Of a stretch of 64,000 bases of DNA, positions 3,555 through 53,679 are shown in pieces. Origin of the DNA: Vairimorpha necatrix. Lineage: Eukaryota. The stretch's first letter is position 1. Each line of letters starts with the position of its first letter. Both the position numbers and the translations under genes were made by a program. Below the pieces are notes generated by a model. The model worked only from the letters and a program-made list of their open reading frames with translations, was not told the DNA's origin and did not search any database. Where the stretch lies: assembly GCA_036630325.1 (NCBI GenBank), contig CP142736.1, positions 248,001 through 312,000 on the forward strand. Reading direction: 5' to 3'.

Positions 3555-5246
3555 ATGAAAATTTGCAAAATTTTCACAAGTATGTTAATTGTACAGGGAT
3601 ATCAAGATGTCTACAATAAACTATATACACTAATAACTGAAAAAATTAAAAATAGAGATTATTGGGAAATTTCTAATGAAAAAAAATATTTAAGGATAAA
3701 ATTGTCTTTTGATTATTTGAATTATCAATTAGATGCGAATATATTAGAAGAATGTAACATTCTCGAAATAATAGAAGAAGAAAAAAGAATATTAGTAAAT
3801 TCTATCGAGAGATCCATTCAAGATATTGTTGTAGAGTTCGAAGATAAATTACTACATGAATGTGAAATTTTGCGTCCAGACTTTATTGTGCTAATTTATA
3901 ATCCTGCATGTTGTCAGCATAATGTGTTTAAACAAATAATCGATTTTTTAATTCAAAAAAATTTAGCAAGAAGAAATTCAATCAATCGTAGCGATCTATT
4001 ATATGAATACATAATCGAAGATATTTCATTATGGAATGTTATGTTTGTAAATTTATATAAACAAGAATATAACAACGATTTTAGTCATCAAAAAATACCA
4101 CTTACTTTTAGTAAAAGGGGAAAACAGCATTACGTAAATTTTTGTATTGAAGTCAAAAATATTAAACATTTATTTGAAATTAATGCAGAAGAAATCGGTA
4201 AGGAAAGTCTATATACTTGGAAAGATACATGCCTTGAAAAGAATAAAGAAGTAGACAGAAAAATTGGCAATTATTTTCATATGTTATACAAGAATATTTA
4301 TGTTGACAATATTGACAATTATTCTATGCCATTTTTCAAAATTTGTACTCCTTATAAAATTGAATTATTCATTAAAAAATTTCGAATTGAGATAATAGAT
4401 GATGAAATTCATCTTGGGCACCGGAATGAGAATCATATTTTCATTCCAAATAGACAAACAACATTATTTGGGAAAAGATACGCGAACGAAAATAAATGGA
4501 TCACGGAATTTAAAAGAGTTTTTAAAAAAATTCATGCAATAGATTTTTCGGAGAACCGTTGTAAAGGCGTTGAAATGTTTTTTAGATTGATTAGATATCT
4601 TAATAAAGTAGATTTTTTTATAGAAAGAATTTTAAATGCTGAAGGTTCGCCTATGAACGTTCTATTAGCACATCTATTACATATTAAAGGATTAATAAAC
4701 AGAAGTGAATTAAAAAATATTATAAATATCGAAGGTCTAATCGAAGAAAAAAAGATACAACTTTGTAAAGAATTAGAAAAAAGTTTATCAACTGATAGAT
4801 GCAATTCAATTTCTTTTTTATTAAAAATATTTTTATTCATAGAAGGTGAAAAATATATAAATAAAAACAGGTCAAACCCCGAACCCAATTTTAAAATATT
4901 GAAGATGATTGGAGCTCTAATAAAGTCGAAAGGAAAGGCTCGTGGTATTTTGAAAAAGATAGAATCAGGGTTTTTTATAAATAAAAATAAGATTGATTTG
5001 GCCGTTATATATGATGATCTAGTAAAAAATCACTTCCAAGATTATCAAAATAGTCAAAGTAATTTATGGAAGGAGGTTTTTAAAATAGCATCATTGTTTA
5101 CAGGATTAGAATCTACTAGATGTGAAATTAATGACCATACATTCTATACTTTGAAAGGAAAAATTATCAGAGAAATGGGACTTGATAAATATGAGGTAGA
5201 AAAAAATAATAAAATAATACAAAGAACTTTATTTGAAAAAAACTAA
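3555..5246 (+). CDS. Hypothetical 563-aa protein, paralog of 11860-13557; possible N-terminal signal peptide
   Basis: Long ORF, CCC motif before ATG, full-length similarity to the second copy (LRPDxIVLIYNP, EMFFRLI, GSPxNV, ASLFTGLESTRC). Confidence 0.85.
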   Translation: MKICKIFTSMLIVQGYQDVYNKLYTLITEKIKNRDYWEISNEKKYLRIKLSFDYLNYQLDANILEECNILEIIEEEKRILVNSIERSIQDIVVEFEDKLLHECEILRPDFIVLIYNPACCQHNVFKQIIDFLIQKNLARRNSINRSDLLYEYIIEDISLWNVMFVNLYKQEYNNDFSHQKIPLTFSKRGKQHYVNFCIEVKNIKHLFEINAEEIGKESLYTWKDTCLEKNKEVDRKIGNYFHMLYKNIYVDNIDNYSMPFFKICTPYKIELFIKKFRIEIIDDEIHLGHRNENHIFIPNRQTTLFGKRYANENKWITEFKRVFKKIHAIDFSENRCKGVEMFFRLIRYLNKVDFFIERILNAEGSPMNVLLAHLLHIKGLINRSELKNIINIEGLIEEKKIQLCKELEKSLSTDRCNSISFLLKIFLFIEGEKYINKNRSNPEPNFKILKMIGALIKSKGKARGILKKIESGFFINKNKIDLAVIYDDLVKNHFQDYQNSQSNLWKEVFKIASLFTGLESTRCEINDHTFYTLKGKIIREMGLDKYEVEKNNKIIQRTLFEKN

Positions 5247-11859: not shown

Positions 11860-13557
11860 ATGGATATTTTTGCAATTTTTACAAGTATATATTTTGTTGT
11901 AGGATTTTCAGAGACCTATGATAGTTTTAACACAGTTATATGTAATAAAATAAAAAACAAAGATTTTTGTTCAATTGATACTGAAAAAACATATTTGAGA
12001 GTAAAATTGGAGTTCGACAGCTCCAATAAAAGATTGAATGCGCTTATTCTAGCTAACTCTCGTATTCTTAAACTTACCGAAGTAGTAAAAATTATAGCAG
12101 TATATTGTGCTGATAAGTCTATAATATATATTGTCAGAATGTTTGAATATAAGTTAATACGTTTGTGTAAAAAATTGCGTCCAGACAATATCGTACTAAT
12201 TTACAACCCAAAACATTGTGATAACCCCGTATTTTGTCAAATAATTTCCTTTTTAATGAAAAAAAAATTAGAGAGAAAAGATGAAATCAATTGCCTCGAT
12301 CCGATATATGAATACATAATCGAAGAAATGTCATTGTGGAATTTTATGTTTGTAACTTTATATATACAAATATATAACAACGAAATTGATTACAAAATAG
12401 TACCGCTTACATATAGTAAAAATAAAAATTCGCATTATATAAATTTATGCATTGAAAGTAAAAATATTAAATATTTTTTTACAATTAACGCCCAAGATAT
12501 TGATATTGAAAATTTTTCTACTACTATAAAATGTAGAGATAAAAAAAATAGGAATAAAATAGACAATAAAATTAGCAAATATTTTCATAAATTATACAAG
12601 ACTGCTTATATCGAGGATATTGGTGGATATTCTCTGCCATTTTTCAAGATTTATACGGACGATAAAATTGAGTTTGTCAGTGGCACTTTTAGGATCAAGG
12701 TAGTAAATGATAAAATTCAATATGCACAAAAAAATAACAAATATATTATCAGTCCAATCAAACTTACAACCTACGATGGCTATAGAGACAATAATGAAAA
12801 TGAATGGATAATAAAATTTAAAGAAACTTTAGAAAGGATTCGTGCAATAGACGAATTTAAAGAAGGTCGTATTGGCACAGAAATGTTTTTTAGATTAATA
12901 ACCTTTCCTTATAAAGTGGATTTCTTCATAAGAAGGATTTTAGATGCGCAGGGTTCACCTTTAAATGTTATGTTGGGACATATTTTAATATCTGAAGGAT
13001 TAATTAACGAATCTGAGTTAATAAATATTACAACAAACGATCGCCTTAATGAAGCAAAAACAATCGAAATTTGTGAAGAATTGGAAAAAATTACATCGAA
13101 GAATTGGTGCAATCATACTTCTTTTGCAATAAAGATATTTTTATTTTTAGAAGCCGAAAAATATTTAAATGAAAACGACGCAGAAAAAAGAAATAAATTG
13201 AAAATTTTAAATAAAATTGGAAATATTATAGAGTCAAAAGAAAAAGAATATAGTATTTCAAAAAACATGACATCATTGTTATCAACGAATAAAAATAAGA
13301 TTGATCTGATAAAAATATATGAAGAACTAGTAAAAAATCATTTACAGGATTATTTAAATTATAAAAAAACTTTATGGGTGGAGGTCTTTAGAATAGCATC
13401 TTTGTTTACAGGTTTAGAATCAACTAGATGTGATATTAGAGGCTATAAATTTCAAGCTTATAAAGAAAATATTATTGAAACGTGGGGACTTGATAAATAC
13501 GAAATAGAAAAAAATAATGAAAAGATAAAAAAAGATCTAGATACTAATAAAATATAA
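11860..13557 (+). CDS. Hypothetical ~565-aa protein, paralog of 3555-5246; hydrophobic N-terminus
   Basis: Long ORF; ATG at 11860 preceded by CCC and aligning with the paralog's start. Confidence 0.85.
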   Translation: MDIFAIFTSIYFVVGFSETYDSFNTVICNKIKNKDFCSIDTEKTYLRVKLEFDSSNKRLNALILANSRILKLTEVVKIIAVYCADKSIIYIVRMFEYKLIRLCKKLRPDNIVLIYNPKHCDNPVFCQIISFLMKKKLERKDEINCLDPIYEYIIEEMSLWNFMFVTLYIQIYNNEIDYKIVPLTYSKNKNSHYINLCIESKNIKYFFTINAQDIDIENFSTTIKCRDKKNRNKIDNKISKYFHKLYKTAYIEDIGGYSLPFFKIYTDDKIEFVSGTFRIKVVNDKIQYAQKNNKYIISPIKLTTYDGYRDNNENEWIIKFKETLERIRAIDEFKEGRIGTEMFFRLITFPYKVDFFIRRILDAQGSPLNVMLGHILISEGLINESELINITTNDRLNEAKTIEICEELEKITSKNWCNHTSFAIKIFLFLEAEKYLNENDAEKRNKLKILNKIGNIIESKEKEYSISKNMTSLLSTNKNKIDLIKIYEELVKNHLQDYLNYKKTLWVEVFRIASLFTGLESTRCDIRGYKFQAYKENIIETWGLDKYEIEKNNEKIKKDLDTNKI

Positions 13558-13956
13558 TTTTATTATAATTACAACGAAACTTGTATGGACAATGTATTTA
13601 TTACATTGTAGAACTTTTATTTTATTATATTTTAAAATTCTTTTATGATAATCTAATAAAGAAGAAGTATACTTTGAACGAAAATGCCTATGTTGAAATT
13701 ATATTATAATAGCAACCCCATAATTTACTTTACGTGAAAATAAAAGAAGGCAATGCTTAATATTAACTAATATTCTTTTCTTAAAATATTTTGATCATTT
13801 CACTTTAGCACCCTTACCAATATAAATTCAAATTTTAAATTTTTACACCTGTTTCTCGAAAGTCGAAGCGGAAAAAAGTAAAGGAGCAAAAATAGAAAAA
13901 TTAAATAGCATAATTACCAATTATAAATATATTATTTTCGTTTTTTTAATTATTAC

Positions 13957-14019
13957 TGTTGAATAACTATAAATAGCTATAATATTATTAAATACCCCTT
14001 ATGTCTACTATTCTCAACA
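13957..14019 (+). repeat. 5' LTR of element 1 (63 bp)
   Basis: Direct repeat of 17989-18051; TGTTGAA...TCAACA termini. Confidence 0.95.
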
Positions 14020-17000
14020 TGGCACCCGGTACGGAAAACTCGTATAGAAGGATGGAAGCACCCAACTTCAGTTTAAAAAGTGCACTTGTAGATTGCATGA
14101 ATTTGAAATATATTTTAAAGACAAAAATATAATTGTAGATGAGGAAAAAATAAACACCGTCTTATTATTTTCAGACGATGAAGCCGCTTATTTCTTATAC
14201 ACAAACAAAGAAAATTTTACAAAAATTACATGGCGAACATTTAAGGGAAGAATTAAAAAATACATGGAAAGGAATGCTTTAGAGAAAAAAATCAAAACAA
14301 AAATATAATGAAGCAACAGCAACTTGGATAAAAAGAGTTCTTCCCCTGGCAAGTGCAGCCAACTTGCCTCAAGAATATACTAAAATGCTTATTAAGAATA
14401 CATGTGTTAACTTAGATTCAATGTTGATTATCCAAGAATGTTTGATGGAACGTAATATTTACAAAGAGAAAGAAATGATACTAAAAGATATAGATGAAGT
14501 GGAATATATTAAGTAAACTGTAAAAAAGATTAGAGCTAATAGAGAGACAGTAATTAGAAGAAAAAGCGTTTCAGAGCCAAGACATAAAGAACCCATTAAA
14601 CAAACTGACAAAACTGAAATGAAAAAATTTAATCAATTAGTAAAAGAGCCTATAGATAATAACAAAAGTGATAATGTAACTGAGATAAAACTAAACAGTG
14701 TAAATATCTCCGCTTTTATGGATGAAGGATCAGATGTGAACATCATCAATGAAAAGAAGGTAGAAGAAAGAGGACTTATTGCATTACCCTGTGAACATAC
14801 AACAATAAAAAACGTGTTTGGGGTAGTAACAGAACTGACTAAAAAGGTAGAGGTAACATTAAAAATCAATGATATTATACTTACTCAGGAATGTTATGTA
14901 GGAGCTTTTAAGAATTCCAATGAAGACATAGTTATCGGCAGGCCAACGTTAAATAAAGTAAAAAACTTAAAAATGAACTTTTGAGCTTGTATGAAAATTT
15001 CCAAGGGTTTTTGATGGAAAGACAAGCAAAGGATACACGGATATAATGTGTGAGATAAACACACCGATAGGCAAGAGAGTGAATATAAAATACAGAAATA
15101 TACCACAGGCCCTAATGAAAGGAGCACAAGAAACAATTAACAAATTATTAGAACAAGGATATATAGAATGTTCGACATCAGCTTGGTGTAATCCCATAAG
15201 ACCAGTATTGAAACCAGATGGCACTGTTAGAATTACAAACAATATGCAATTTCTGAATAACCTAGTTGAAGATAACAACTATACAATACCTGTAATTCAA
15301 AACATAGTAGATGCCACGCGAGGCAAAAGATTTTTTACAGTTATAGATCTGACAGATGCCTACTATCAAATACACCTGAAACCTGAACATAAATATAAAA
15401 CCGCATTTTATTATAAAAGTAAACTATATCAATACACACGGATGCCACAAGGCTTTAAGAATTCACCTGGCATGTTTCAAATGATAATGGATAGATTACT
15501 TGAAAACCACCTTGAAACTGCTTGTTGCGTCTATTTAGACTACATAATAATTTTTGGAACAACAGAAGAAGAACATGACAATAACCTAGCTAATGTTTTG
15601 ACGATACTTGAAAAAAACAACTTCAAGGTTAACCCAACGAAATTACAATTTAAACAAGAAACTATTGAATTATTAGGAATGATGATTGATGGAAAAAAAC
15701 AATATCCAATAGAACAACATCAAAAAAAGGTATTAGATTTTAAAGTACCAACCACAGTTAATGAGGTACAAGATTTCTAGGATTAGCTAATTATTACAGA
15801 AGATTTATCTCAAACCTAGCTACAATATCTGCTCCACTTTATGAATTACTTAAAAAGAAGAAATTTATATGAAAGGAAGAGCAACAGAAAGCATTTGATA
15901 TTATTAAAGAAAGAATCAACAGTAAGATTGCTAGACATATTCCAAACTACCAAATTCTTTATACTATCCACCGACGCATCAAATACAGGAATCGGCGCAT
16001 GCCTACAACAAGAGCACAATAACGAAATTGCAGTAGTAGATTGGGCATCCAAGAAGCTGACAGATGCTGAGAAAAAATATGGAATTACAGAGAAAGAATT
16101 TCTGGCGATGGCTTGGAGTATTACACACTTTGATTATTATCTACGAGGAAGAAAGTTTAAAGTAATAACAGATCATTCTGCAATTTTATCTATGAAGGAT
16201 AAACACATTTTTGGAAACCTACGACTAGAACGAATGAGAGAAAAATTACAGGATTACGATTTCGAAATTGAATATCGAAAAGGCAAAGAACTAATAGACG
16301 CCGATGCAATTAGCAGGATTTATGAGGATCCAAAAGGGGTTGAAGAACTTAGAACTAAAAATAAAAACGTATTAATCGCTTCTGATGGAAAGTGGTACTA
16401 TAAAGTAAATGAAAATGAAATTAGATATTTCCCCGAAGTTCTTGAAAGAAAAGATATTTTATATAAAGCACACGAAGTAAACACCGTGCATGGTGGAATA
16501 AGTGCCATGACTTACGAATTGAAAAAGAACTATTATTGGCCAAAAATGACAGAATCGATAACAAATTATATAAAAAACTGTGAATCATGTGTCCGAAACG
16601 ATCAAAAAAGCTTAGGAGGTGAAGAATTTGTAGAAACACAAAGGCCGTTAGAAATATTTGGAATGGACCTAATGTTTATTGACCAGAAGACGACACTTAT
16701 GACTTGTATAGATTACTTTACACGTAGATGTATGATAAAGCCCTTAAAATCAAAGAAAGCTAGCGTTTGTAGAAATGAAATAACAGAAATGTTTCAAGAG
16801 ATTGGAGTTCCTGAGAAAATTATTACAGACAATGGAAAAGAATTTACAGCTACAACTATAAAAAAAATCATGTCTAATATGTTAGTAAATCACCATAAAA
16901 TATCTATAGACAAGCATCAGTCTAATGGTAGGATAGAAAGATTACATAGGAAAATTTGGCAAGCATAAAAAAAAATAGAATGTAATCAAAAGGAAACATT

Positions 17001-17355
17001 AGAAGAAATTTTATATGATGTAGAAAATAAAATTAACAATACATTTAATAGAGCAATAGGTTGCACCCCGAACGAAGCATGGGATGATCCTGATAATAAA
17101 ACATTGAAAGAATTGAATAAAAAAGATTCAAAATACGGAAAAGAATTTAAAAAACTTCCACGTGAAAAATTTAGAATTGGAGAACAAGTGTTTATTCAAC
17201 AAAATCCAATGCAGGCACAGGACAAGCTCAACGATAAATACATTGAAGAGGGAATGATACATACTGTGTTAGAAAATGACTCTTACTTAGTAAAAGTAAA
17301 CGATAAACTGATCAAAAAGAGCCATTCTCAGCTCAAATTAGTACCAACTATATGA
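14001..17355 (+). pseudogene. Fragmented gag-pol of element 1
   Basis: ORF fragments at 14093 (capsid-like), 14619 (protease, FMDEGS), 15046 (RT, YLDD mutated to YLDY), 15841 (RH-INT) and 17104 (INT C-terminus). Confidence 0.9.
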
Positions 17356-17458
17356 TTGCTTGTTATAAAACCAAAAGACATAAATTTTTATTTATTACCC
17401 TTAAATAGAAACAGAAACTAGTCAAAGAACTAAAAGTATATGTAGGTCAACTTAAAAT

Positions 17459-17962
17459 ATGGAAAGTAGACTCTTGAACCTGCAGTCCAATCTGAAAGAC
17501 GGAGAAACCTTCAATTATATAATTAGGAATGCAAGTACAGATTTGGGAGAGTATATATTACAAGAAGGTTTTACAACATGGAAGGGCATCGAAAAATGTG
17601 CCGAAGACCAAAAACTCACAGCTGACACCGTTTTAAAAGTATGTGCAAACACGAGGAAAAGCACTGAAACAGTAACTGAATATCTAGGCAGACTTGGAAA
17701 GGACTTAAAACGGCTTGGAGCCACGGATAAAATGATAATAAAATATTTAAGCCTTACTATTGCTATGGGAAATGTGGAAGTCCACATGATGTTAAGCCTA
17801 TACACTGATATGGAGGAATTTTTGGCTCACACTTCTAAAATACTTACAAGCAGAACAAGAAGGAATAAGCTCACCAATAAGAAAATTTGCAGTTTTTGTA
17901 AACAACAGGGACATGAATCAGAAAAATGTTTCAAAAAGCCAAATTATAAAAAAGATCAGTAG
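17459..17962 (+). CDS. Gag-like protein with CCHC zinc knuckle, inside element 1 downstream of pol
   Basis: MHR-like ETVTEYLGRL, C-terminal CSFCKQQGHESEKC, CCC motif at 17398-17400 upstream; the 5' end is probably frameshifted. Confidence 0.75.
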   Translation: MESRLLNLQSNLKDGETFNYIIRNASTDLGEYILQEGFTTWKGIEKCAEDQKLTADTVLKVCANTRKSTETVTEYLGRLGKDLKRLGATDKMIIKYLSLTIAMGNVEVHMMLSLYTDMEEFLAHTSKILTSRTRRNKLTNKKICSFCKQQGHESEKCFKKPNYKKDQ

Positions 17963-17988
17963 ACCGCAGTCTTTTTTTTTGGGCGGGA

Positions 17989-18051
17989 TGTTGAATAACT
18001 ATAAATAGCTATAATATTATTAAATACCCCTTATGTCTACTATTTTCAACA
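17989..18051 (+). repeat. 3' LTR of element 1 (63 bp)
   Basis: Direct repeat of 13957-14019, followed by TSD ATTAC. Confidence 0.95.
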
Positions 18052-19559
18052 ATTACTTCTTTCGTTTATTAATCAAAACTTATCTTTATTATACATTTTA
18101 TATAATACAAATAAAGCTTGGTTAATTTATTTACAAACAATATATTATACGCTTTAACATAGTTTTAAACGATATTTCTTTATAAATTATAATTCTCATA
18201 ATATATGATATTTTACCTTTGGACGGAAAAATATCATATCATATAAAACTAATGATTACATGATTCAAAAAATACACAAAAGAGTATAAATATACATAAA
18301 ACAACATTGTTTTACTATAAAAACTAATTAATTACACAAAAGACCTTACTTTTTTTTATACGTAAAAATAATAATAACCTAACCTAGAATGGGTTTATAA
18401 TTACAAAAACTAATTGAAAACATGTTTACAACAACAAATATTAATTGTAATGACAAAAAAATAAAATATTTTTGTACAAATTTAGACTGCTTTTAAAGCA
18501 CATATTTACGGTAATACATCATTGTAGAGAATTTAAAATAATGTTATTCAAAATTATTGATCAAATTGATCTTAGAACCCCATTTTTTTGTACTATGTAG
18601 ATTTTTGTTTGTTCCTTTCCGTTTTGAACGCTCTAATTTTCAAAAAAAAGCGCTAAAAATAAAAAATCCTGAATTTATACTGACAAGGAGAGGGGCAAAG
18701 TGGAAATTGGCCAATGTTTTTTAAACTTTAAATGGTTTATTAAATCTGTAGATCATTAGAATTCATTTTATTAGATCTAATCAAGTAGAATTTATCAATT
18801 ATTTTTTTTGATTCGGCAAGAGCGACAAAAAAAAAATGTCGTTGACTCTAAATTTTTTACCTCCTCAAAAAATAGGATTTAAAAAAGAAAAACAATAACA
18901 GCTGTATAATCACTGATCAATTATATAATTAAATGTATAAAATATAAGTTTTTTTATAATTTTATATCTCTTAACATTATGAACATATAAAATCTTATAA
19001 TTTTGTTATTATAAAGTGTGAAATTAGAAACATTTTTCATCTAAAAAACAGTTTTATCAAATAATTAATTGATATAGGCTAAAAATATATTAAAGGAGTT
19101 TTACTTTAAAGACTGTTATGTAACATTGGAACCTTGTTTTTTTGGAAATAGCTCTCTAAATTATTGATATTAAATGTTGGTAAATTAATATAAGTTTTTA
19201 GAGAGTTACTAGACAATCGACCCCTCATCCAAAGCGTATCAAAAAAAATATCACTTCACCAAAATCGAAAAAAATAATCAATTGTTACTTTTTTGTAATT
19301 TTTTTTTCTAATGAGCGATTTTCAAAGCTATGGTTTCTTCCCCTTGCTTTCGTATTTTTCTTACTATTCATGCTAGTAAGAATTTTGGAAAAGGTAGGAG
19401 AACATGATCCTTGAAATCCTTTATATCAAGATAATGATCACAAATTTACACTTTTGATTAAAGAGAGTGTAAAAAGCCTGGTATTTTATTTGTCTCAAAG
19501 TTATGTCATGGAAACATGTCCATTGCTAGAGTTTCTTCCTTTATTGAAAGAAGGGGGTA

Positions 19560-30184: not shown

Positions 30185-30673
30185 TTATTCATAAGAAGCC
30201 ACTTCTGCCTTCTTAATTATTTCCACTTTAGGGGTCATTTTATGTACTGGCATAATTCTTCCTAAATGTTGTTTCACTCCACTTTCCTTAGCTTCCTTCC
30301 CATTCTTAAAGATAGTTATCTTACTGAGATATTCTTTCAGTCTCTGCGCATTCAAGTCTAAAGTCTCTTTATTCATGTTCCTTCTTCTGTTGTCTACTCT
30401 GATTCCTATTCTTCTTGCATAATTTACTTCTAGTCCTGCTTCTTTTAATTCCTCAGGAGTAAATCCTTTACCAAGTCTCTGCTTCTTATTGTATCTTATA
30501 GTAGGACATCTTACAATAGGACACAGTTTCTTAAGTGGAGCAGGATAAAGTACTTTAGCTTTACTAGATCTAGTCTTGGCCCTTCTTTGTGCCCTACTAG
30601 GCTGGTTATGCCATTCTTTTACCCTTTTCATAGCATTTCTATGATTATTTGGTAGAATGTGGTTGTTCTTCAT
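30185..30673 (-). CDS. RPL13: 60S ribosomal protein L13 (eL13)
   Basis: [44 protein letters not shown]. Confidence 0.96.
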
Positions 30674-30706
30674 TTGGGGCTTAAAAAAATTTATTTTTTT
30701 AAGCCC
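30674..30706. promoter_or_regulatory. 33-bp palindromic bidirectional promoter
   Basis: Perfect 14-bp inverted repeat GGGCTTAAAAAAAT-TT-ATTTTTTTAAGCCC places CCC next to both divergent ATGs. Confidence 0.75.
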
Positions 30707-31174
30707 ATGACTGGAACTATAAAATCAGTAATAACACAAGGAAAAAGAAAGACAGCTTTGGCCACTTGTAAGTGTTCTGAGAGTGAAGAAATGAGTATTT
30801 TGGTAGACAAAGTACCATATAAGATACTCAGTAACAAACTTATGTTATCAAAGATTAAAGAAATAATCTGTGTGGTTGATGATGTCAATCTTAAGAATCT
30901 TAGTTTTCAGATTACGACTAAGATCAAAGAAGGAGTAGTGACTCATAAGAAAGGGAATGGAGAAGTGGCTCTTGCTTATGCAGTGAGAATGGCCTTTGCA
31001 AAGGCCATTGTCGCTTATTATGGGACTTATTGTGATGAGTGGAAGAAACAAGAAATCAAGAAAGTTCTTATGTCTTTTGACAGATATTGTCTTGTGGGAG
31101 ATATTAGGAAAAAAGAACCAAAGAAATTTGGAGGACCAGGAGCCCGAGCAAGATACCAGAAATCTTATCGTTAG
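30707..31174 (+). CDS. RPS16: 40S ribosomal protein S16 (uS9)
   Basis: [28 protein letters not shown]-terminus; CCC-ATG at 30707. Confidence 0.97.
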
Positions 31175-36224: not shown

Positions 36225-37310
36225 TTATTCTTTTAATACCAAATGCCCAAGGATCATGAAAACGCATAAGAAAAAAACAAGCCAAAGTTTTTTACTTATA
36301 TATTTTTTAGGTATATATTGCGATACTAATAAAGCTGCAACACATACAATAGGAACAAAAACTGCATAACTTAAAACTCCAAATCTATAAGAAAATGCAT
36401 CCAGTTTAAAGCCAACGTCGGTAGAAGCATCTGTAGGAGCTATATCCTCATGCAATTTGGAGAAGACAGTATCAGAGGCGCTATTAAGAAGATTTTGGTC
36501 ATATGGTATTTCCATAATATTTAAATTAGAATCATTTTCTTTGACTAATTTTTTCGATGTATCACTATTGATTATAGATCTTTTATTTCTTGATTGTTTT
36601 TTGCCTCTAAATCCGTTTCGTATATCAATATTAATACTGGTTGGCTCTACAATTTGATCCTGTGTCTTAAAATATCCAACTATCTCACTACAGTAATGTT
36701 GTCGGGTTGGATTAAATACTCGTTCATGCTTTATATTCATATTCCACCTTCGATGTTCAGGTACACACTTGTTTAAAACGCCTTGTTTGATGAAAATATT
36801 CTCTTCACACGATACATCTCCTTCGCATGCTTGTATTACTAAACTTTTGGCACATCTTAGTTTATCAAAATGTTCTTGTTGGATACAATTCCTTTTATTG
36901 CACTCTTCGTTAAAAGTTTCCGCCGCATTTACGAACCTATCTTCTAAAATTTTTTTAGTATCTTCTTCTTTAAATCTTCTTACCAAGTCAGGCTTGCCAA
37001 ATGCTTCACCTTCCTCCTGGTTATAACAATTAATATTTGTATCAGTATTAAATAATCCATGCGTATACCAATTGCAAAAAGGATTTACCCATCCTTTATA
37101 TTTACTTTGGGCTAAATTATAAATAGTAACTAGTCTTCTTTCGTTACAATGGACACATTGGTTGTATTTTCTAAGTAGACATCTCAAAAAATTTTTGTGA
37201 ACATATATTGTCTGAGTATTATCTTTGCAATGCATGTTGGCGTACATTATTTCTGATGCCATGGAGTCAGCTAATTGTTCGTCAGACTTAGGATTTTCAG
37301 TATCACACAT
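36225..37310 (-). CDS. Cys-rich protein with RNKR site and two C-terminal hydrophobic helices, family copy A
   Basis: CCC-ATG at 37310 aligns with the paralog start; first ~245 aa highly similar to 42198-43283. Confidence 0.88.
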   Translation of the reverse strand: MCDTENPKSDEQLADSMASEIMYANMHCKDNTQTIYVHKNFLRCLLRKYNQCVHCNERRLVTIYNLAQSKYKGWVNPFCNWYTHGLFNTDTNINCYNQEEGEAFGKPDLVRRFKEEDTKKILEDRFVNAAETFNEECNKRNCIQQEHFDKLRCAKSLVIQACEGDVSCEENIFIKQGVLNKCVPEHRRWNMNIKHERVFNPTRQHYCSEIVGYFKTQDQIVEPTSINIDIRNGFRGKKQSRNKRSIINSDTSKKLVKENDSNLNIMEIPYDQNLLNSASDTVFSKLHEDIAPTDASTDVGFKLDAFSYRFGVLSYAVFVPIVCVAALLVSQYIPKKYISKKLWLVFFLCVFMILGHLVLKE

Positions 37311-37859
37311 GGGATAAAATTTTTTTATTGAATTTAAATACATGTCAAAATTCTAATTTTTTTTCATTTTTATATAGATAGCTCGGAGATAGTTTATAAC
37401 TCGACAATTAAAAAAACGGAATTTGTCTTTTATTTATTGATGTATGTCAAGACCACAAATGTCAAATCTCAACAGCAACAAAATATCAATATAATACATA
37501 TATAGAACAAGAAATATTTTTGCATTTTTTTAAACTAATGTTTTTTTTTGTAAAAAAAAATTAGAGAGTTGTTTCAAACTTATAATTCACATTTTTTCAT
37601 GCTTACTTTAAAAATTTATAACTTACGTCTTTGAACTTATTTTAATAATTTAAAATGTTGTTTTATCGACACATGTCAAAATTTCAAATTTTTTTCACTT
37701 TTGATTATTTTATGATTTTTAAACACCAGACATAAGACATATAAGTTTTTTGTACTTATCCTATTCGAATTATAAATTCGTACGTTTTTTCTTTATTTTA
37801 CCATATTATTGACTTTTTGATTCGACTTTCTTTATTTTACAAATTTTAATCTGCAAACA

Positions 37860-42197: not shown

Positions 42198-43283
42198 TTA
42201 TTTGATTAATGCTAAACAAACTAAAATGCCAATTAGGCACAAGAAAAAACCAATACAGTATTTTTTAGTTAAAAATTTTTCAGGTGGACATTTCGTTATT
42301 AAATAAGCAACAACACATATAAAGAGAACTAATACTGCATAATTGAATATTTCAAACGTATATTGATAATCATTTAGTGAAGAGGAAACGTTAGAAGAGA
42401 AGTCTGCATTCGAATTTTCCTTGCGTGAGTGAGAAACCACAGCATTATAGATTTTTTTAAAAGAATTTTGCTCGCTTGGTATTTCTATAATATTATTATT
42501 CGAAACATTTTCTTTGACTAATTCTGTTGATGAATCATGTTTTTCTAAAGATCTTTTATTTCTTGATTGTATTTTGCCTCTAAATCCGTTTCGTATATCA
42601 ATAGTAATACTAGGTGGTTCTACAATTTGATCCTGTGTCTTAAAATATCCAACTATCTCACTACAGTAATGTTGTCGATTTGGATTAAATACTCGGATAT
42701 GCTGAATATTCATGTTGCTCCTTCGATGTTCAGGTACACACTTGTTTAAAACGCCTTGTTTGGTGAAAATATTCTCTTCACACGACACATCTCCTTCGCA
42801 TGCTTGTATTACTAAACTTTTGGCACATCTTAGTTTATCAAAATGTTCTTGTTGAATACAAGTCCTTTTATTACACTCTTCGTTAAAAGTAATTGCCGCA
42901 TTTACGAACCTGTCTTCTACAAATTTATTTGTATCTTCTTCTTTAAATCTTCTTGCCAAGTCAGGCTTGCCAAATGCTTCCCCCTCCTCCTGGTTATAAC
43001 AATTAATATTTGTATCAGTATCAAATAATCCATGTGTATACCAATTGCAAACAGGATTTACCCATCCTTTAAATTTATTACAGGCTAAATTATATATAGT
43101 AACTAGTCTTCTTTCATTACAATTGACACATTGGTTGTATTTTCTAAGTAGACATCTCAGGTAATTTTTATGAACATATATTGTCTGAGTATTATCTTTG
43201 CAATGCATGTTTGCGTACATTATTTCAGATGCCATTGAGGCAGCTAATTGTTCGTCAGACTTAGGATTTTCAGTATCACACAT
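42198..43283 (-). CDS. Cys-rich membrane-anchored family, copy B
   Basis: Intact 361-aa ORF, CCC-ATG, RNKR, two C-terminal hydrophobic segments. Confidence 0.88.
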   Translation of the reverse strand: MCDTENPKSDEQLAASMASEIMYANMHCKDNTQTIYVHKNYLRCLLRKYNQCVNCNERRLVTIYNLACNKFKGWVNPVCNWYTHGLFDTDTNINCYNQEEGEAFGKPDLARRFKEEDTNKFVEDRFVNAAITFNEECNKRTCIQQEHFDKLRCAKSLVIQACEGDVSCEENIFTKQGVLNKCVPEHRRSNMNIQHIRVFNPNRQHYCSEIVGYFKTQDQIVEPPSITIDIRNGFRGKIQSRNKRSLEKHDSSTELVKENVSNNNIIEIPSEQNSFKKIYNAVVSHSRKENSNADFSSNVSSSLNDYQYTFEIFNYAVLVLFICVVAYLITKCPPEKFLTKKYCIGFFLCLIGILVCLALIK

Positions 43284-47960: not shown

Positions 47961-50165
47961 CAATGAAGAAAATTTTTAATCGATTATTAAATATATTTCG
48001 GTCTTGTAGGGCACATAACTTATTTCTGTCGATGTATTCGTGTTACCTACTTATAGCCATAGTGATGAATTTTTAATGTTGACTATTTCATTTTATTTGC
48101 CCTAAACAACTTTTTAATTTTTTCGTATTTTAAATTTTTTTATATTCTAAGCTTATTGTTTCATATGTATTAGTGTGTTAACCCGTATTTTTCATTTTTA
48201 ATGGCAATGCACTTTTGCATCGATATTTTTTGTCGATATATGACTTGAAGATTATAACTGTAACAGATCTTACGAAGATGTACTTAAAAACTTTGTCACA
48301 CCTTCGCATATAATAATGTTCCAACATTATTCCGCACGAGATGCCATGCAACCAGTCTTTTTATTTTTCAATATATCGTGAATTTCTAGTCCTTTTGCAG
48401 AATATGATCTTTTTTTGCAAAGCACGGCGCAGCCTCTTCTTTCGTTTATAATTACAATGTAAGCCACAACGACAAGTCACAGCATTGAAGTATAGTCCCA
48501 TCTAGTTCATTATAGTTTAGTTAAGTAAAACTACGTTTCTAATATCACATTCTAGTTTCATTCATTATGCTTTAAGTATTTTTTTGTAAGTTCATTTTCC
48601 TTTTATATTAAAATTTCTTAAAAGCCTTAATTTCGGTAGGTGTATTAAAAGAAAAAAATCTGTTTAAGTAAGATCTTGATACTCAATGAAGATTATCCCG
48701 AGTTGTTTAAAACATAAATGTATAAAATAGGATCTTTCCTTCTTAGATATTACATTGATAAGCAATGATCTAATCAGTCTCGAAAAATACAGCTGCTTTT
48801 GACAAAAATGCTATGATTGAAGTGAATTTTTTTGTAAAAAAATTATATTTTCGCATTCGATATTTTTCTCGCGGGTATTTATACTATATAAAATTATCTT
48901 ATAATAAAATTTTTATTTTTTGTCAAGAATAATATTTTCTGTTTTACTTTTGAATGTATAATCCTGTTTTAATCTTCCTTTTTAATCTTTTATTGTCATA
49001 TTCACGCAATATCCTTCTGTGATCATAAAAGTTTTGTGATATCTCTACACATATTAGTTTTTAAGGCAAACATCTCAAATTTGCCTCAAGACAACTTCGA
49101 GAATTAAATTTATGTTTCTGATATAGTTTTTATACTATCTAGCATTTTAAATCGTCAACGAATAACAAAAAAAACTCTTGATTACTATACTCTTTGTCTC
49201 GTCTTGTCCACCAAGTTGTTCATTTAGCTTCTTATCTATGAGTTCTATGCACAGCACAACATGAAAGAGATAAGCGTATTTACAGGAATTTCTTTTAATT
49301 AGAAATTTTTAATTTTTTGCTCATATCTTGCCTCAAGTGGCAATCTTCTAGCTAGGTCACAAAGAGAGTCATTCATCTTAAAATTTATAATATTTTGATG
49401 CTTTAATGTCTGTATGTTTTACAGTGCCTTGGCCTTGTCTTCGACTTCCATGCTGTTTATACCTAAGTAATGTTGTTGTTTGAAATATTATTTCAAAGCA
49501 TTGCTCATAGTATCTTGAACTTTCATATTTGTCATGAATTTCTCATATAATAATAATTTACAATTAAAATTTTAATCTTATGTGTATTAAATATAATAGA
49601 AACTTATATAAATTTAACATGTTATCGTTCGGTGGTCCTTCGTGAGTTTGATAGGGGGTTGTTATTGAGTGTGCAAGCACATTAGTTGCCTATATAAATC
49701 CTTTTTCATTCAATCTTAAAGTGAATACACGGCGTCTACTTCTTTATGGGTAATTTCAAGCTTTTTAATGATAAAGTAATACGTTTTGCGCCGTATTGCT
49801 GCTTTTAGCTGTCCCTCTTTATATCTATATGTTTTCCATCTATGAAGCAATATTCGCCGATGTTGAATTGAACGTCTTTTAAGGACCCGAAAATTTTTTT
49901 GTCTGTCAATATTTTCGATCGGAATTCTTAAATTTGCAAAAAGGCTAATTATTGCTGCGATTATTTCTCGTTTTTTTTGTTGGATTCTATAAAGGCGAAC
50001 TCAGAACGCACAAATATATGGTTTTCTTTTTAAAAGTGTTTTATCCTTGCTTAATATTGTAACTTTTCTTTTATACATTTTTCCAATAGTTTTACATATA
50101 TTTCCCAACAGCTTTGGCCTCATCAAGGATTATAATTTTTTTAGATTGCTTCTTTTGTTATTTTA

Positions 50166-50214
50166 TGTTATATATTCTTATATTTCTGAACCCCATTTAT
50201 GGTAAATAAATACA
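50166..50214 (+). repeat. 5' LTR of element 2 (49 bp)
   Basis: Direct repeat of 53259-53307. Confidence 0.95.
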
Positions 50215-53200
50215 TGTGGGCGATACCGAATCGTGAGCTAACAAGTGTTGGCTGTTTTCAAGAGGCCAGAAGGTTATTAGAAGAGCTTAAGAGGATTGTT
50301 TATGGACTGATATTGTCTGATTATGATTTTGAGAAAAATGTAAAGAAGGAGATTTTTGAAATGAACTGATGAGTTGAAAGAATTTATGGTTAAGAATATT
50401 AAGATTGGAGATCATTGGAAAGTTATGGAAACCAAATTAGAGGAATTGGTTAAAGTACAGGAGGGAAAGGGTATGAGATTACGGATGATTGAGGAGGTCA
50501 CAAAGATGGTGGCAGAGGAGATTAATAAATATTAGTAGAGAGGAAAGAATATTTGAAAAGAGAGGAACAATGAGGTGTTATAATTGTTCAAGAATGGGAC
50601 ATATAAATCAGATGTGTTATTATAGATATAGAAATGTTAAGAATAAAGACGAATGTGACAAGATTAAAGATGAAGGTAGCAGTAGCTGTGATGAAAGGAC
50701 TTATAGGAACACATAGGATGCTAAAAGACAAAAGAAACAAGAATGGAAGACAAGAATAAAAGATGTTATGATGAGGTAGAAAAGAACGTTCTAACATTAG
50801 AAGACATGAGAAAGAGGTTTAGGAACGTTATAGATAACGAAGAAGAAAAAATAAGATATTGTAATATTGAAAAATGCAGAATCAGAACTGAAGAAGGTAA
50901 AAAAGTTATAAGTAAGGGTCAGCAGGTGCTACAAGCGCATAAAGAAGAGCTGAGAAAATATATTCAGAAGTTAGAGACAAGGAATGTCATAAGAAGATCG
51001 ACGTCGGAATGGAGAAATCCGATTAAAGCTTTAATTAAGCCAGATGGAAGTATAAGACTGGTTAGCAATCTCATGGCATTAAATGATTTAGTGGAGAAAG
51101 ACCCTTATGAATTGGTGAACATTAGGGATATCATAAGGAACACGCAAGGGTCGAAGTTTTTCAGTGTTATAGACCTTAAGGAGGCTTTTTATGGAATCGA
51201 AATAGAGGATCAAGACAAGCATAAGACTGCATTTGAGTATGATAAGATAGTATATGAATGGAATAGTATGGTCATGGGGTTTAAAAACTCGCCTCAGATC
51301 ATGCAGAGAATTATGAATAAGATTTTTGAAAAACATTTGGGTGGTAAAATAGAAGTATACATGGATGATATAGTGATTCATGCGAAGACTAGAAAAGAAC
51401 ATGATAAATTATTTGTAGAAGCGATGAAATTGTTAGAACGGAATAATATGCGGATAAATTCAAAGAAAATTAAGTATTGCCAAAAGGAAGTCAAGTTATT
51501 GGGAGTTACATTAAACGGATATGATATGATGCCGTCTGAAATCAAGAAAAACGAAGCACTAGAGTTTCCAACGCCGCAGAATGTGTCTGACATAAGAAGA
51601 TTTTTAGGACAAAGTGGATGGTTTCGAGGATTTATTAAGAATTATGCGGAGAAGACATTATATATGACTGAAAGTTTGAAAGGTAAAAGTAAAGTATTGA
51701 ATTGGACTGATGACTTAAATAAAGAATTCGAAAATATGAAGGAAACGTTAAGAAGTATGAGTAAGTTGAAAATTGTGAACTATGACAAAGAATTTTTATT
51801 AAGAACTGACTCGAGCAATATAGGAATGGGCGCAGTACTCATGCAGAAGAATGATAAAGAAGAGTGGGTGCCAGTACAATGGGCATCGAAGAAATTCACC
51901 TCGACGTAAACTAGATATGGTATAAGTGAAAAGGAAATGTATGCCATATCTTGGGGAATAAAGAAATTTGAGTATGAGTTAAGAGGATGAAAATTTAAAG
52001 TAGAAACGGATCACAAAGCATTGGCGGAAATAAGAAGAAAGCCGTGTTTTAATAATAATAGAATTAATCGATGGATTGAAAAGATCCAAAAATTTGACTT
52101 TGAAATAGATTACAGGAAACCAGAACATATGGTCGTGGCGGATGCTTTGAGTAGGATACACGAGGAGGTTGATCCGAGAAAAGAAATTATAAAAAAAGAA
52201 GTGGGCGTCAAATTGAAGGTAAATGGTTGAAGCACGTCGAGACAATAGACGGTAAAGAATACTGGAATTTTGATTCGGGGAGGAAAGCATTGATTCCTAA
52301 AATAGAAGAAAGAGATGAGCCTATGAGACGTTATCATGAAGAGCATGGACACAGAGGACTAGGAAGCATGTATTATGCCATAAAGTTTGATTATTATTGG
52401 CCAGGAATAAAAGAAGATATAGTGAAAATGATAAAAAGATGCGAGGAGTGTCAAATTTACAATAGGAAAAGATCTGGAGGATTTGATTTTGTTGCTAAAA
52501 GCAGGTATTTAAAAAAAGTAGCGTTAGATTTAATTGATTTTAGAGATAAGGGCAAATATGTATTAGTTGCGATAGTTTACCATACGAGGATAACGTGGGG
52601 ATGTGTATTATACGATAAGAAGAGATCCTCTGTGGCCCAGTTTATTGAGAACTTATGTAGAAATGGCAGGAGGCCGAAGGAAATAATAACGGATAATGGG
52701 AAGGAATTTGATAATGTTGACTTTAAGATTTGTGTAGAAAATTGGATATTACCCATAATAAGGTAGTGTCGAGTCTCATAGAAGCAATGGTAGAGTTGAA
52801 AGAGTTATAGGAATGCTGAGAGAGCTAATGTTGAATTGAGCAAAAAGACGGCGAGTTTTGAAGACATAGTGATGGATAGCTTTAAAATTTATAATAATAG
52901 TTACCATGAAGGTATAAGAAGTACTCCCAATGAAGCGGTAAAAGACAATACGGGGAAAATGATGATATTAAATGGACCAGAAGGAGAGGAGACTACAGTA
53001 AAAGATTTGTTAGAATATATAGAGAGCGGTTTATTGAAGGACAACGAGTTAGGATAGCTAAGAAAGAAATATCAAAGGATGTAATAAATATGAAAAGGGG
53101 AATGTTTTTAGACGAAGGTATTATAATGGTGGTATGCCCTGGGGACTCGTATGTTGTATAGCTATCTAATGGGCGATATGTTAAAAAGAGACATTATGAC

Positions 53201-53258
53201 TTGAAAAATCTGCTTAGGGTCGATGGTGATGTAGGAGACTAACCGTCTTGGAGGGGGA

Positions 53259-53307
53259 TGTTATATATTCTTATATTTCTGAACCCCAATTATGGTAAAT
53301 AAATACA
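53259..53307 (+). repeat. 3' LTR of element 2 (49 bp)
   Basis: Direct repeat of 50166-50214; preceded by the PPT and followed by the TSD. Confidence 0.95.
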
Positions 53308-53679
53308 TTTTATATTTATCTTGATTTTTTTGTTCTCATTGTATTGAATAATAAGCTCATTCAGCTTATAAGTTCTCTTCGCCCTTCTAGCGCTCATTCA
53401 AGGTGCTATTTTTTATTTTTTATACATTAATGTCTATAATAAATAAATCTTTCTAATTTGAAATAATAAAATAATAATGCAAAAAGATAAATTTAATATT
53501 AAGAAACGTACAACGCAAATATTTCTAAAAATTATCAAATTTATGATTTAAGCTTTTAATTAGCCTAACGTAAATAAAAATTTTATATCGATACCATAAT
53601 CTATATATTAAAATTTTTAAAAAGTAAATATAATTAAATGCTGATATCTTTCATATAATACAGTAGTACAATGAATTAT

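Follow-up and report, generated by a model that had tools for sequence, protein, structure and literature searches.

We analysed a 64,000-nucleotide stretch of the Vairimorpha necatrix genome (contig CP142736.1 of GenBank assembly GCA_036630325.1, positions 248,001 to 312,000 of the forward strand), here called the window and numbered from its first letter, and within it a Ty3/gypsy long terminal repeat (LTR) retrotransposon that carries an additional open reading frame (ORF), ORF3, downstream of its integrase. The window has a G+C content of 28%, and it carries host genes without introns (e.g. the gene for the largest subunit of RNA polymerase II, 1,605 amino acids). The element occupies positions 13957-18051 (4,095 bp) on the forward strand. 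It is bounded by two 63-nucleotide LTRs with TG...CA termini (13957-14019 and 17989-18051) that are identical at 62 of 63 positions, and the target-site duplication ATTAC was read on both sides (13952-13956 and 18052-18056). Because this flanked LTR pair encloses domains in gypsy order, the element represents a complete Ty3/gypsy insertion.

Within the 5′ LTR lies a TATAAATA box followed by CCCC (13995-13998) and the gag ATG (14001), an upstream context like that of host gene starts. The gag frame begins in the LTR, four bases after the CCCC, and continues across a candidate primer-binding site, TGGCACCCGGTACGG (14020-14034), that abuts the LTR; the sequence directly 3′ of the LTR reads TGGCACCCGG... 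(TGG...). Arg-TCT is the sole tRNA within the window; no tRNA matching the candidate site was identified, though the 3′ end of Arg-TCT was not compared with it. The putative 5′ gag, ORF1 (14001-14516), appears capsid-like and has no zinc knuckle. It is followed by a basic linker and aspartic protease (14517-14984; the Pfam match to Asp_protease, at E 3.3e-4, scored 21.2 bits where the cut-off is 26, and three more protease families matched more weakly), the reverse transcriptase (14995-15780; RVT_1, E 1.3e-30), and the RNase H, integrase zinc finger and core, and integrase C-terminus (15820-17355; RT_RNaseH 1.1e-29, Integrase_H2C2 1.9e-14, rve 4.1e-8). The order protease, reverse transcriptase, RNase H, integrase is that of gypsy elements, with the protease below the Pfam cut-off. 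Downstream of the pol stop codon (TGA, 17353-17355) come the leader (17356-17458) and coding sequence (17459-17962) of ORF3, and then a T-run and polypurine tract, GGGCGGGA (17972-17988, the tract itself at 17981-17988), abutting the 3′ LTR.

An initial annotation of this DNA had described a 167-amino-acid, same-strand ORF between the pol stop and the purine tract, which it took for a second gag-like gene, and the ORF was confirmed at 17459-17962 on the forward strand. It is the only long same-strand ORF in this interval. The annotation had seen no LTR or target-site duplication suggestive of a nested insertion around it, and here too it was borne out: between 11000 and 21000 the 63-nucleotide LTR pair is the only family of direct repeats, so that no LTR pair or target duplication brackets ORF3 itself.

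A phmmer search with ORF3 against 1.84 billion representative proteins (E<=1e-3) returned 24 matches, the best with an E-value of 1.9e-21 over residues 2-162, which rules out a chance ORF. Twenty-one of the matches were proteins of 94-209 amino acids that aligned along the capsid part, and the other three (P0002, P0005, P0017) matched mainly the knuckle. ORF3 was aligned with 20 of the 21 capsid-part relatives (alignment A1; P0022, matching residues 122-166 only, was excluded). Nineteen of the 21 rows begin with methionine, 13 contain the full knuckle, and the relatives have 12-30 extra N-terminal residues compared with ORF3. Three relatives are named, as hypothetical proteins of the microsporidia Glugoides intestinalis (KAM0679793.1), Pancytospora philotis (KAI4293513.1) and Nosema granulosis (KAF9761515.1). 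When the 90%-identity clusters of the relatives were looked up, 19 of 20 had a single member and one had two, all on one or two contigs. A word-index protein search with the family alignment found no fused form of 367-2000 amino acids, which is weak evidence, and the same kind of search with ORF3 found no match of similar length. No ORF3 match was found in viral contigs or prokaryote genome contigs, and none to the relatives P0019 and P0013 in metagenome contigs.

The initial annotation had read capsid-like features and a motif resembling the major homology region (MHR) from the letters of ORF3, and had suggested comparing an AlphaFold model with capsids. An AlphaFold2 model built on the 21-row alignment had a mean predicted local distance difference test score (pLDDT) of 88 and bore this out, matching the capsid C-terminal domain (CTD) of Arc with a Z-score of 9.6 (root-mean-square deviation (rmsd) 2.7, 77 residues aligned). 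Each structure search listed 50 matches. Further Z-scores were 8.2 for the Arc C-lobe, 7.6 for the copia capsid, 6.9 for MOAP1, 6.6 for PNMA2 and 6.4 for PEG10, and the capsids of RSV, HIV-1 and foamy virus were also among the matches listed. In a Foldseek search with the same model the first three rows were Arc capsid domains (best probability 0.98, E 0.056), and in the ESM atlas ORF3 lay with clusters of Retrotrans_gag, Ty3_capsid and zf-CCHC at 0.93, which serves as a lead only. In the model, residues 52-141 form the predicted capsid C-lobe, with the MHR-like residues R66..E70..Y75..R78L79 at its opening. Residues 14-50 are predicted to form three short helices, a partial N-lobe, and alignments to whole capsids had high rmsd (murine leukaemia virus capsid hexamer, Z 5.6, rmsd 9.6 Å over residues 1-159; PNMA2 whole capsid, Z 6.6 at 7.6 Å). 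The tail (residues 130-167) is basic, with an isoelectric point of 10.0, and contains the CX2CX4HX4C knuckle that the annotation had pointed out, CSFCKQQGHESEKC (residues 144-157, nucleotides 17888-17929). A motif scan found this to be the only CX2CX4HX4C of the element, with none in the three forward frames of 14001-17355. No hydrophobic or membrane segment was found in ORF3 (largest 19-residue Kyte-Doolittle mean 1.13), in keeping with the soluble, helical two-lobe model. Prediction of a homodimer scored 0.01 against a mark of 0.32, which is no evidence either way. Judged by its sequence and modelled fold, ORF3 is a genuine gag-type gene, encoding a capsid C-lobe, a partial N-lobe, a basic tail and one CCHC knuckle. 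Separately, positions 94-127 of the A1 profile, corresponding to the first helix-turn-helix of the C-lobe, read 'k.lk.lG.sE..iIkiLs', which resembles the annexin repeat signature.

The 5′ gag had been described as capsid-like and devoid of a knuckle. Both features stood, the first on weaker evidence than for ORF3, but ORF1 is not one ORF in the window copy: its frame changes at ~14101 and again at ~14287, and a stop codon interrupts it in frame at 14514. Its place is between the primer-binding site and the protease, and in other copies it shares the pol frame. For the piece at 14102-14305, the nearest ESM atlas entries were Retrotrans_gag clusters (0.90 and 0.89), with nine of the ten best in one clan. 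Pfam matched nothing on the ORF1 pieces, and a word-index search with the 14102-14305 piece found no match among longer proteins. A single-sequence AlphaFold2 model of 14289-14513 reached a pLDDT of 59.5 and a best Z-score of 6.2, with no capsid among the matches listed, and is uninformative at that confidence. ORF1 may be accepted as a knuckle-less Gag, although on weaker evidence than ORF3; with ORF1 taken as a Gag, the annotation's term 'gag-pol-gag' is a fair description of the element.

Microsporidian genes have been described as having a CCC-like motif directly 5′ of the start codon and 5′ untranslated regions of <7 nucleotides (PMC2803860). In the window, CCC after a T-rich run was found <=17 nucleotides 5′ of the ATG for 10 of 14 host ORFs of >=150 amino acids (distance 0-17 nucleotides), compared with a background of 109 of 2,323 ATG triplets (4.7%) with CCC just upstream. 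The gag ATGs of both gypsy elements in the window are immediately preceded by CCCC located within the LTR, indicating that the gypsy elements here use the host start signal. If this signal marks the start of transcription, R plus U5 would span at most about 20 nucleotides, both in this element and in the second, which has an LTR of 51 nucleotides. A scan for bacterial-type promoters and terminators gave 22 sites against 20.8 expected and was set aside as irrelevant for this host.

The initial annotation had credited ORF3 with its own AT-rich/CCC motif. The motif is present, a T-rich run with CCC at 17399-17401, but not close to the ATG: it lies 58 nucleotides from ATG 17459, compared with 0-17 nucleotides in host genes, and there is no other CCC near this ATG. 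Four bases after the CCC is an in-frame ATA (17405-17407), 54 nucleotides 5′ of the ATG, from which the ORF3 frame stays open for 16 codons up to an in-frame TAA (17453-17455); the leader also contains a two-codon ATG-TAG (17440-17445). Since the CCC adjoins an in-frame ATA and is far from the ATG, the 167-amino-acid ORF is probably an N-terminally cut remnant. On the simplest reading, working copies would start at the ATA site and produce a protein of ~185 amino acids; the window copy would no longer have this start and would have picked up a stop codon.

The window copy has at least five frameshifts and three in-frame stops in gag-pol, with frame changes near 14101, 14287, 14959-14982, ~15770 and ~15860 and stops at 14514, 14992 and 16966-16968. 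Logan contigs of four public runs were compared with 13400-18600, and the element was present in two of them, X1 and X2, as contigs ~98-99% like the window element. These contigs differed from the window at 14101, 14287, 14514, 14959, 14982, 14992 and 16967, and frame arithmetic by hand showed the differences to be indels of frame-restoring size plus a substitution in each of the three stop codons. At the ORF1 breaks (14101, 14287, 14514) they consisted of 1- and 5-letter indels together with a single substitution. The shifts near 15770-15860 are covered by a contig with 6 gaps whose positions were not itemised. Because seven frame breaks are repaired in the X1 and X2 contigs, other copies appear to carry a single gag-pol frame, and the window copy is a decayed and, as its broken frames predict, dead pseudo-element.

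The same runs also bear on the position of ORF3. In X2 one contig (record 13; 346 letters with 46 other letters and 12 gaps, ~87% alike) spans from 17224 in the integrase to 17578 in ORF3, and at least one diverged copy thus shares the pol-to-ORF3 order. The same junction in this ~13%-diverged contig indicates that such an order has been passed down over some time. Two further contigs (X2 records 15 and 16) agree with the window over 17549-18018 except at 5 letters, and a 3-letter in-frame insertion at 17875 is present in both X1 and X2. Intactness of ORF3 was considered as a sign of selection and rejected: at the rate of at least 8 disabling changes per ~3.4 kb of gag-pol, ~1 would be expected in 504 nucleotides, and the probability of none is ~0.3; the argument is further weakened by the damaged-looking N-terminus.

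Taken together, ORF3 is best explained as belonging within, and being inherited with, a subfamily of highly compact Ty3/gypsy elements of microsporidia. Our leading reading of its function, tentative and given a little less than even weight, is that it is a separately started 3′ mini-Gag that supplies nucleocapsid and capsid in trans. The separate promotion, setting of the Gag:Pol ratio and Ty1 p22-like restriction that the annotation had put forward are likewise putative. Here, one polyprotein would be translated from the gag-pol main frame, with a Gag part that has no knuckle. ORF3 would, in working copies, start ~18 codons further 5′, right after the host-type T-rich/CCC signal, which would direct a predicted short ORF3 mRNA that is 3′-co-terminal with the genomic RNA. 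With its product made in larger amounts than Pol, subunits for the capsid and for nucleic-acid binding could then be provided in trans, to the benefit of ORF3-bearing and ORF3-less copies alike. The presence of a knuckle in ORF3 and its absence from the Gag of the element suit such complementation. The fuller version, a two-Gag system of a Pol-fused, knuckle-less capsid and a separately transcribed, diverged 3′ mini-Gag whose family is conserved across distant microsporidia, is somewhat unlikely. If true, it would be a hitherto undescribed means of setting the ratio between structural and enzymatic proteins and of providing nucleocapsid in trans, including to ORF3-less copies parasitising the mini-Gag. 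Apart from this, the finding supplies a name and a probable origin for unannotated hypothetical proteins of ~160-210 amino acids in several microsporidian genomes.

Several observations weigh against a mini-Gag acting in trans. One is an ORF3-less form of the element: an X2 contig links 17370 to 17976 through 37 other letters, which recur in X1 as a loose end at 17370. Compared by eye, 27 of these 37 resemble 17938-17975 (the last ORF3 codons and trailer), so this form lacks 17371-17937 (567 nucleotides) and keeps a diverged ORF3 tail. The coexistence of this form indicates that ORF3 is dispensable in cis, and the check suggested in the annotation, whether other copies carry the ORF in the same place, came out positive for the ~87%-alike contig but not throughout. 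Another contig (X2 record 14, ~90% alike) has a 1-letter gap at 17655 in ORF3. The 18-codon upstream extension added 2.7 bits against the family hidden Markov model, which 3 of 20 shuffles matched and which is not significant. The G+C content at third codon positions (GC3) of ORF3 (17459-17959) is 0.347, compared with 0.24-0.28 in ORF1, the protease, the reverse transcriptase, the RNase H-integrase region and the integrase C-terminus (14102-17352), 0.21-0.24 in host genes and 0.373 in the pol of the second element; the difference hints weakly at a history of its own. ORF1 and ORF3 have no significant likeness (E 6.1 in direct comparison; in hhalign against the ORF3 family, E 0.019 for 14102-14305, in the same register round a conserved tryptophan, and E 0.31, no likeness, for the second ORF1 piece), which makes co-assembly doubtful. 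Pfam gave no match of ORF3 to Retrotrans_gag, Ty3_capsid or zf-CCHC at E<=1, the best match being zf-C2H2_10 on the knuckle (24.2 bits, cut-off 26.2), so that gag membership rests on fold and motif. Lastly, the relatives may be genes of the host or else 5′ gags from other elements.

Some of these observations are also what would be expected if ORF3 were a captured gag of another lineage, recombined 3′ of pol by template switching between co-packaged RNAs, which would ride along as a passenger or act as a dominant-negative capsid limiting transposition, in the manner of Ty1 p22 and Fv1-type factors. The pol end of the ORF3-less form is ~98% like the window (X2 record 11), and its tail is far more diverged than that, making recombination between lineages likely rather than recent deletion or simple inheritance. 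The raised GC3 and the lack of detectable likeness to ORF1 would likewise fit, and the C-lobe also matches Ty1 p22 and Drt2 capsid CTD structures, weakly (Foldseek rows 38 and 44; Z 5.3). Varied third ORFs captured by LTR elements are known from bdelloid rotifers (PMC5408684). On the other hand, the pol-to-ORF3 junction is shared with the ~13%-diverged contig, the knuckle is found in ORF3 and not in the Gag of the element, and the relatives are never fused to pol, whereas fusion would be expected of ordinary microsporidian gags, which are reported as parts of single polyproteins (PMC4202319). We regard capture as somewhat unlikely, though as the main alternative.

An origin from a host-domesticated microsporidian gag gene of the Arc/PNMA/RTL kind, picked up via read-through or template switching, is improbable. 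That the relatives are lone hypothetical proteins in three microsporidian genomes, in small clusters on one or two contigs, and that the ORF3 leader has a host-type CCC start signal would agree with it; however, where its surroundings can be seen, in one place only, the gene is located within an LTR element, several diverged copies in X2 (records 13-16) fit a repeat, and collapsed repeats in short-contig assemblies would also yield small clusters. Less probable still, ORF3 could be what is left of an independent element, nested or in tandem, that lost its LTRs and pol by deletion. The leader can be aligned, if loosely, to the LTR of the element (local score 30; both begin with TGTT and end with CCCTTA), and an imperfect repeat, AAAA(G)CCAAA, occurs at both edges of the segment absent from the short form; but the alignment score was reached by 204 of 2,000 shuffles and 102 of 2,944 random windows and is not significant, no second repeat pair or duplication surrounds ORF3 between 11000 and 21000, the element's own purine tract and LTR follow directly 3′, and two precise deletions would be needed. 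That ORF3 is open by chance alone, or encodes a protein unrelated to gag that carries an annexin-like repeat, can practically be dismissed. The family profile does match annexin IV chains with a whole-sequence E-value of 1.7e-6, but this value adds up three short matches, all to one helix-loop-helix motif (per-stretch E 0.22, 9 and 290), and in both structure searches capsids lead and no annexin is among the matches listed, while the relatives of ORF3 speak against chance.

The second gypsy element of the window (50165-53308, 3.1 kb) belongs to an unrelated family, its reverse transcriptase and RNase H being 37% and 46% identical to those of the first. Its 51-nucleotide LTR (50165-50215) contains CCCC and the gag ATG, and its canonical 5′ gag has a knuckle, CYNCSRMGHINQMC (~50576-50617). 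Only ~230 nucleotides separate the knuckle from the reverse transcriptase, leaving no obvious room for a protease. The frames are broken, and no ORF follows the integrase.

Elsewhere in the window, two head-to-head ORFs of 162 and 155 amino acids are separated at 30673-30707 by a 33-nucleotide spacer that is a near-palindrome, GGGGCTTAAAAAAATTTATTTTTTTAAGCCC; either strand shows a T/A run and CCC just 5′ of the ATG, making up a minimal bidirectional start region. A pair of ORFs, 372 and 361 amino acids long and without Pfam match (36225-37343 and 42198-43283, minus strand), has nearly the same upstream sequences and looks like a local duplication of an uncharacterised gene. Because a CCC-adjacent ATG is seen in the 361-amino-acid ORF, the ATG given for the 372-amino-acid ORF is probably too far upstream. 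Another pair, of 565 (11860-13557) and 563 amino acids (3555-5246), has CCC-type starts and belongs to no Pfam family; one of the two lies directly 5′ of the first gypsy element.

How does this arrangement compare with known systems? The gypsy elements described from microsporidia, Nbr of Nosema bombycis and the families of Anncaliia algerae, encode a single polyprotein of Gag, protease, reverse transcriptase, RNase H and integrase, as given in the available parts of their descriptions (PMC4202319, PMC2474625). The window element resembles them in domain order, in the single gag-pol frame of its other copies, in its compact, AT-rich host and in the CCC before the gag ATG. Their descriptions, in those parts, name no ORF after the integrase, whereas here a second gag-type gene follows. 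Compared with what is given there, the fused Gag here lacks a knuckle, the LTRs measure 63 nucleotides, the gag ATG lies in the LTR and the primer-binding site in the coding frame. With 4.1 kb, such short LTRs and a translated primer-binding site, this degree of compaction illustrates the size to which an LTR element can be cut down within a reduced genome.

A fused gag-pol raises the problem of making more structural protein than Pol, for which other elements use gag-only RNAs. In copia, a spliced RNA encodes gag only. Single-ORF elements of plants obtain an excess of gag from spliced or shortened gag RNAs, the shGAG isoforms, according to two studies (PMC7765848, PMC7730604). The proposed problem is the same here; however, theirs is met by splicing or early termination of the same gag, and ORF3 is a different, diverged 3′ gene with its own putative start, which would give single-ORF elements a new route to more capsid than polymerase.

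Small proteins that contain a capsid C-lobe are also known apart from a main Gag. The Ty1 restriction factor p22/p18 is made from an internally initiated RNA, p22 being the C-terminal half of the same Gag in the same frame, and RTL8 versus PEG10 is a comparable case. Like p22 and Drt2 (the latter known from the title of its PDB entry), ORF3 could co-assemble with particles or poison them. Unlike p22, it is not an N-terminally truncated product of the gag frame of the element but a separate gene 3′ of pol, without detectable likeness to the Gag of the element and with the knuckle kept. The best structural matches, Arc, PNMA, PEG10 and MOAP1 (Z 9.6-6.4, over the C-lobe), are likewise small, stand-alone, gag-derived proteins. 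Those are host genes without LTRs, whereas ORF3 in the window is not a lone gene and lies, together with pol, inside an LTR element bounded by target duplications.

LTR retrotransposons and retroviruses are taught as having gag first and pol second, and third ORFs 3′ of pol are known to be env-like in gypsy, Athila and Tat. In the LTR elements of bdelloid rotifers, one study lists captured third ORFs for a GDSL esterase, a DEDDy exonuclease and env-like proteins (PMC5408684). ORF3 is like these in being an extra same-strand gene between the integrase and the polypurine tract that is present in some members only. No gag-type gene 3′ of the integrase was described among the papers listed by the literature searches. 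The cargo here is capsid and nucleocapsid, and neither a membrane protein nor any enzyme family above the Pfam cut-off, so that a function already encoded at the 5′ end of the element is duplicated. Known third ORFs are env-like or enzymatic. The gag-type third ORF is a real and unusual architecture, here in a dead copy and with a putative function; combined with a knuckle-less fused Gag, a gag-type gene 3′ of the integrase would amount to a new genome plan.

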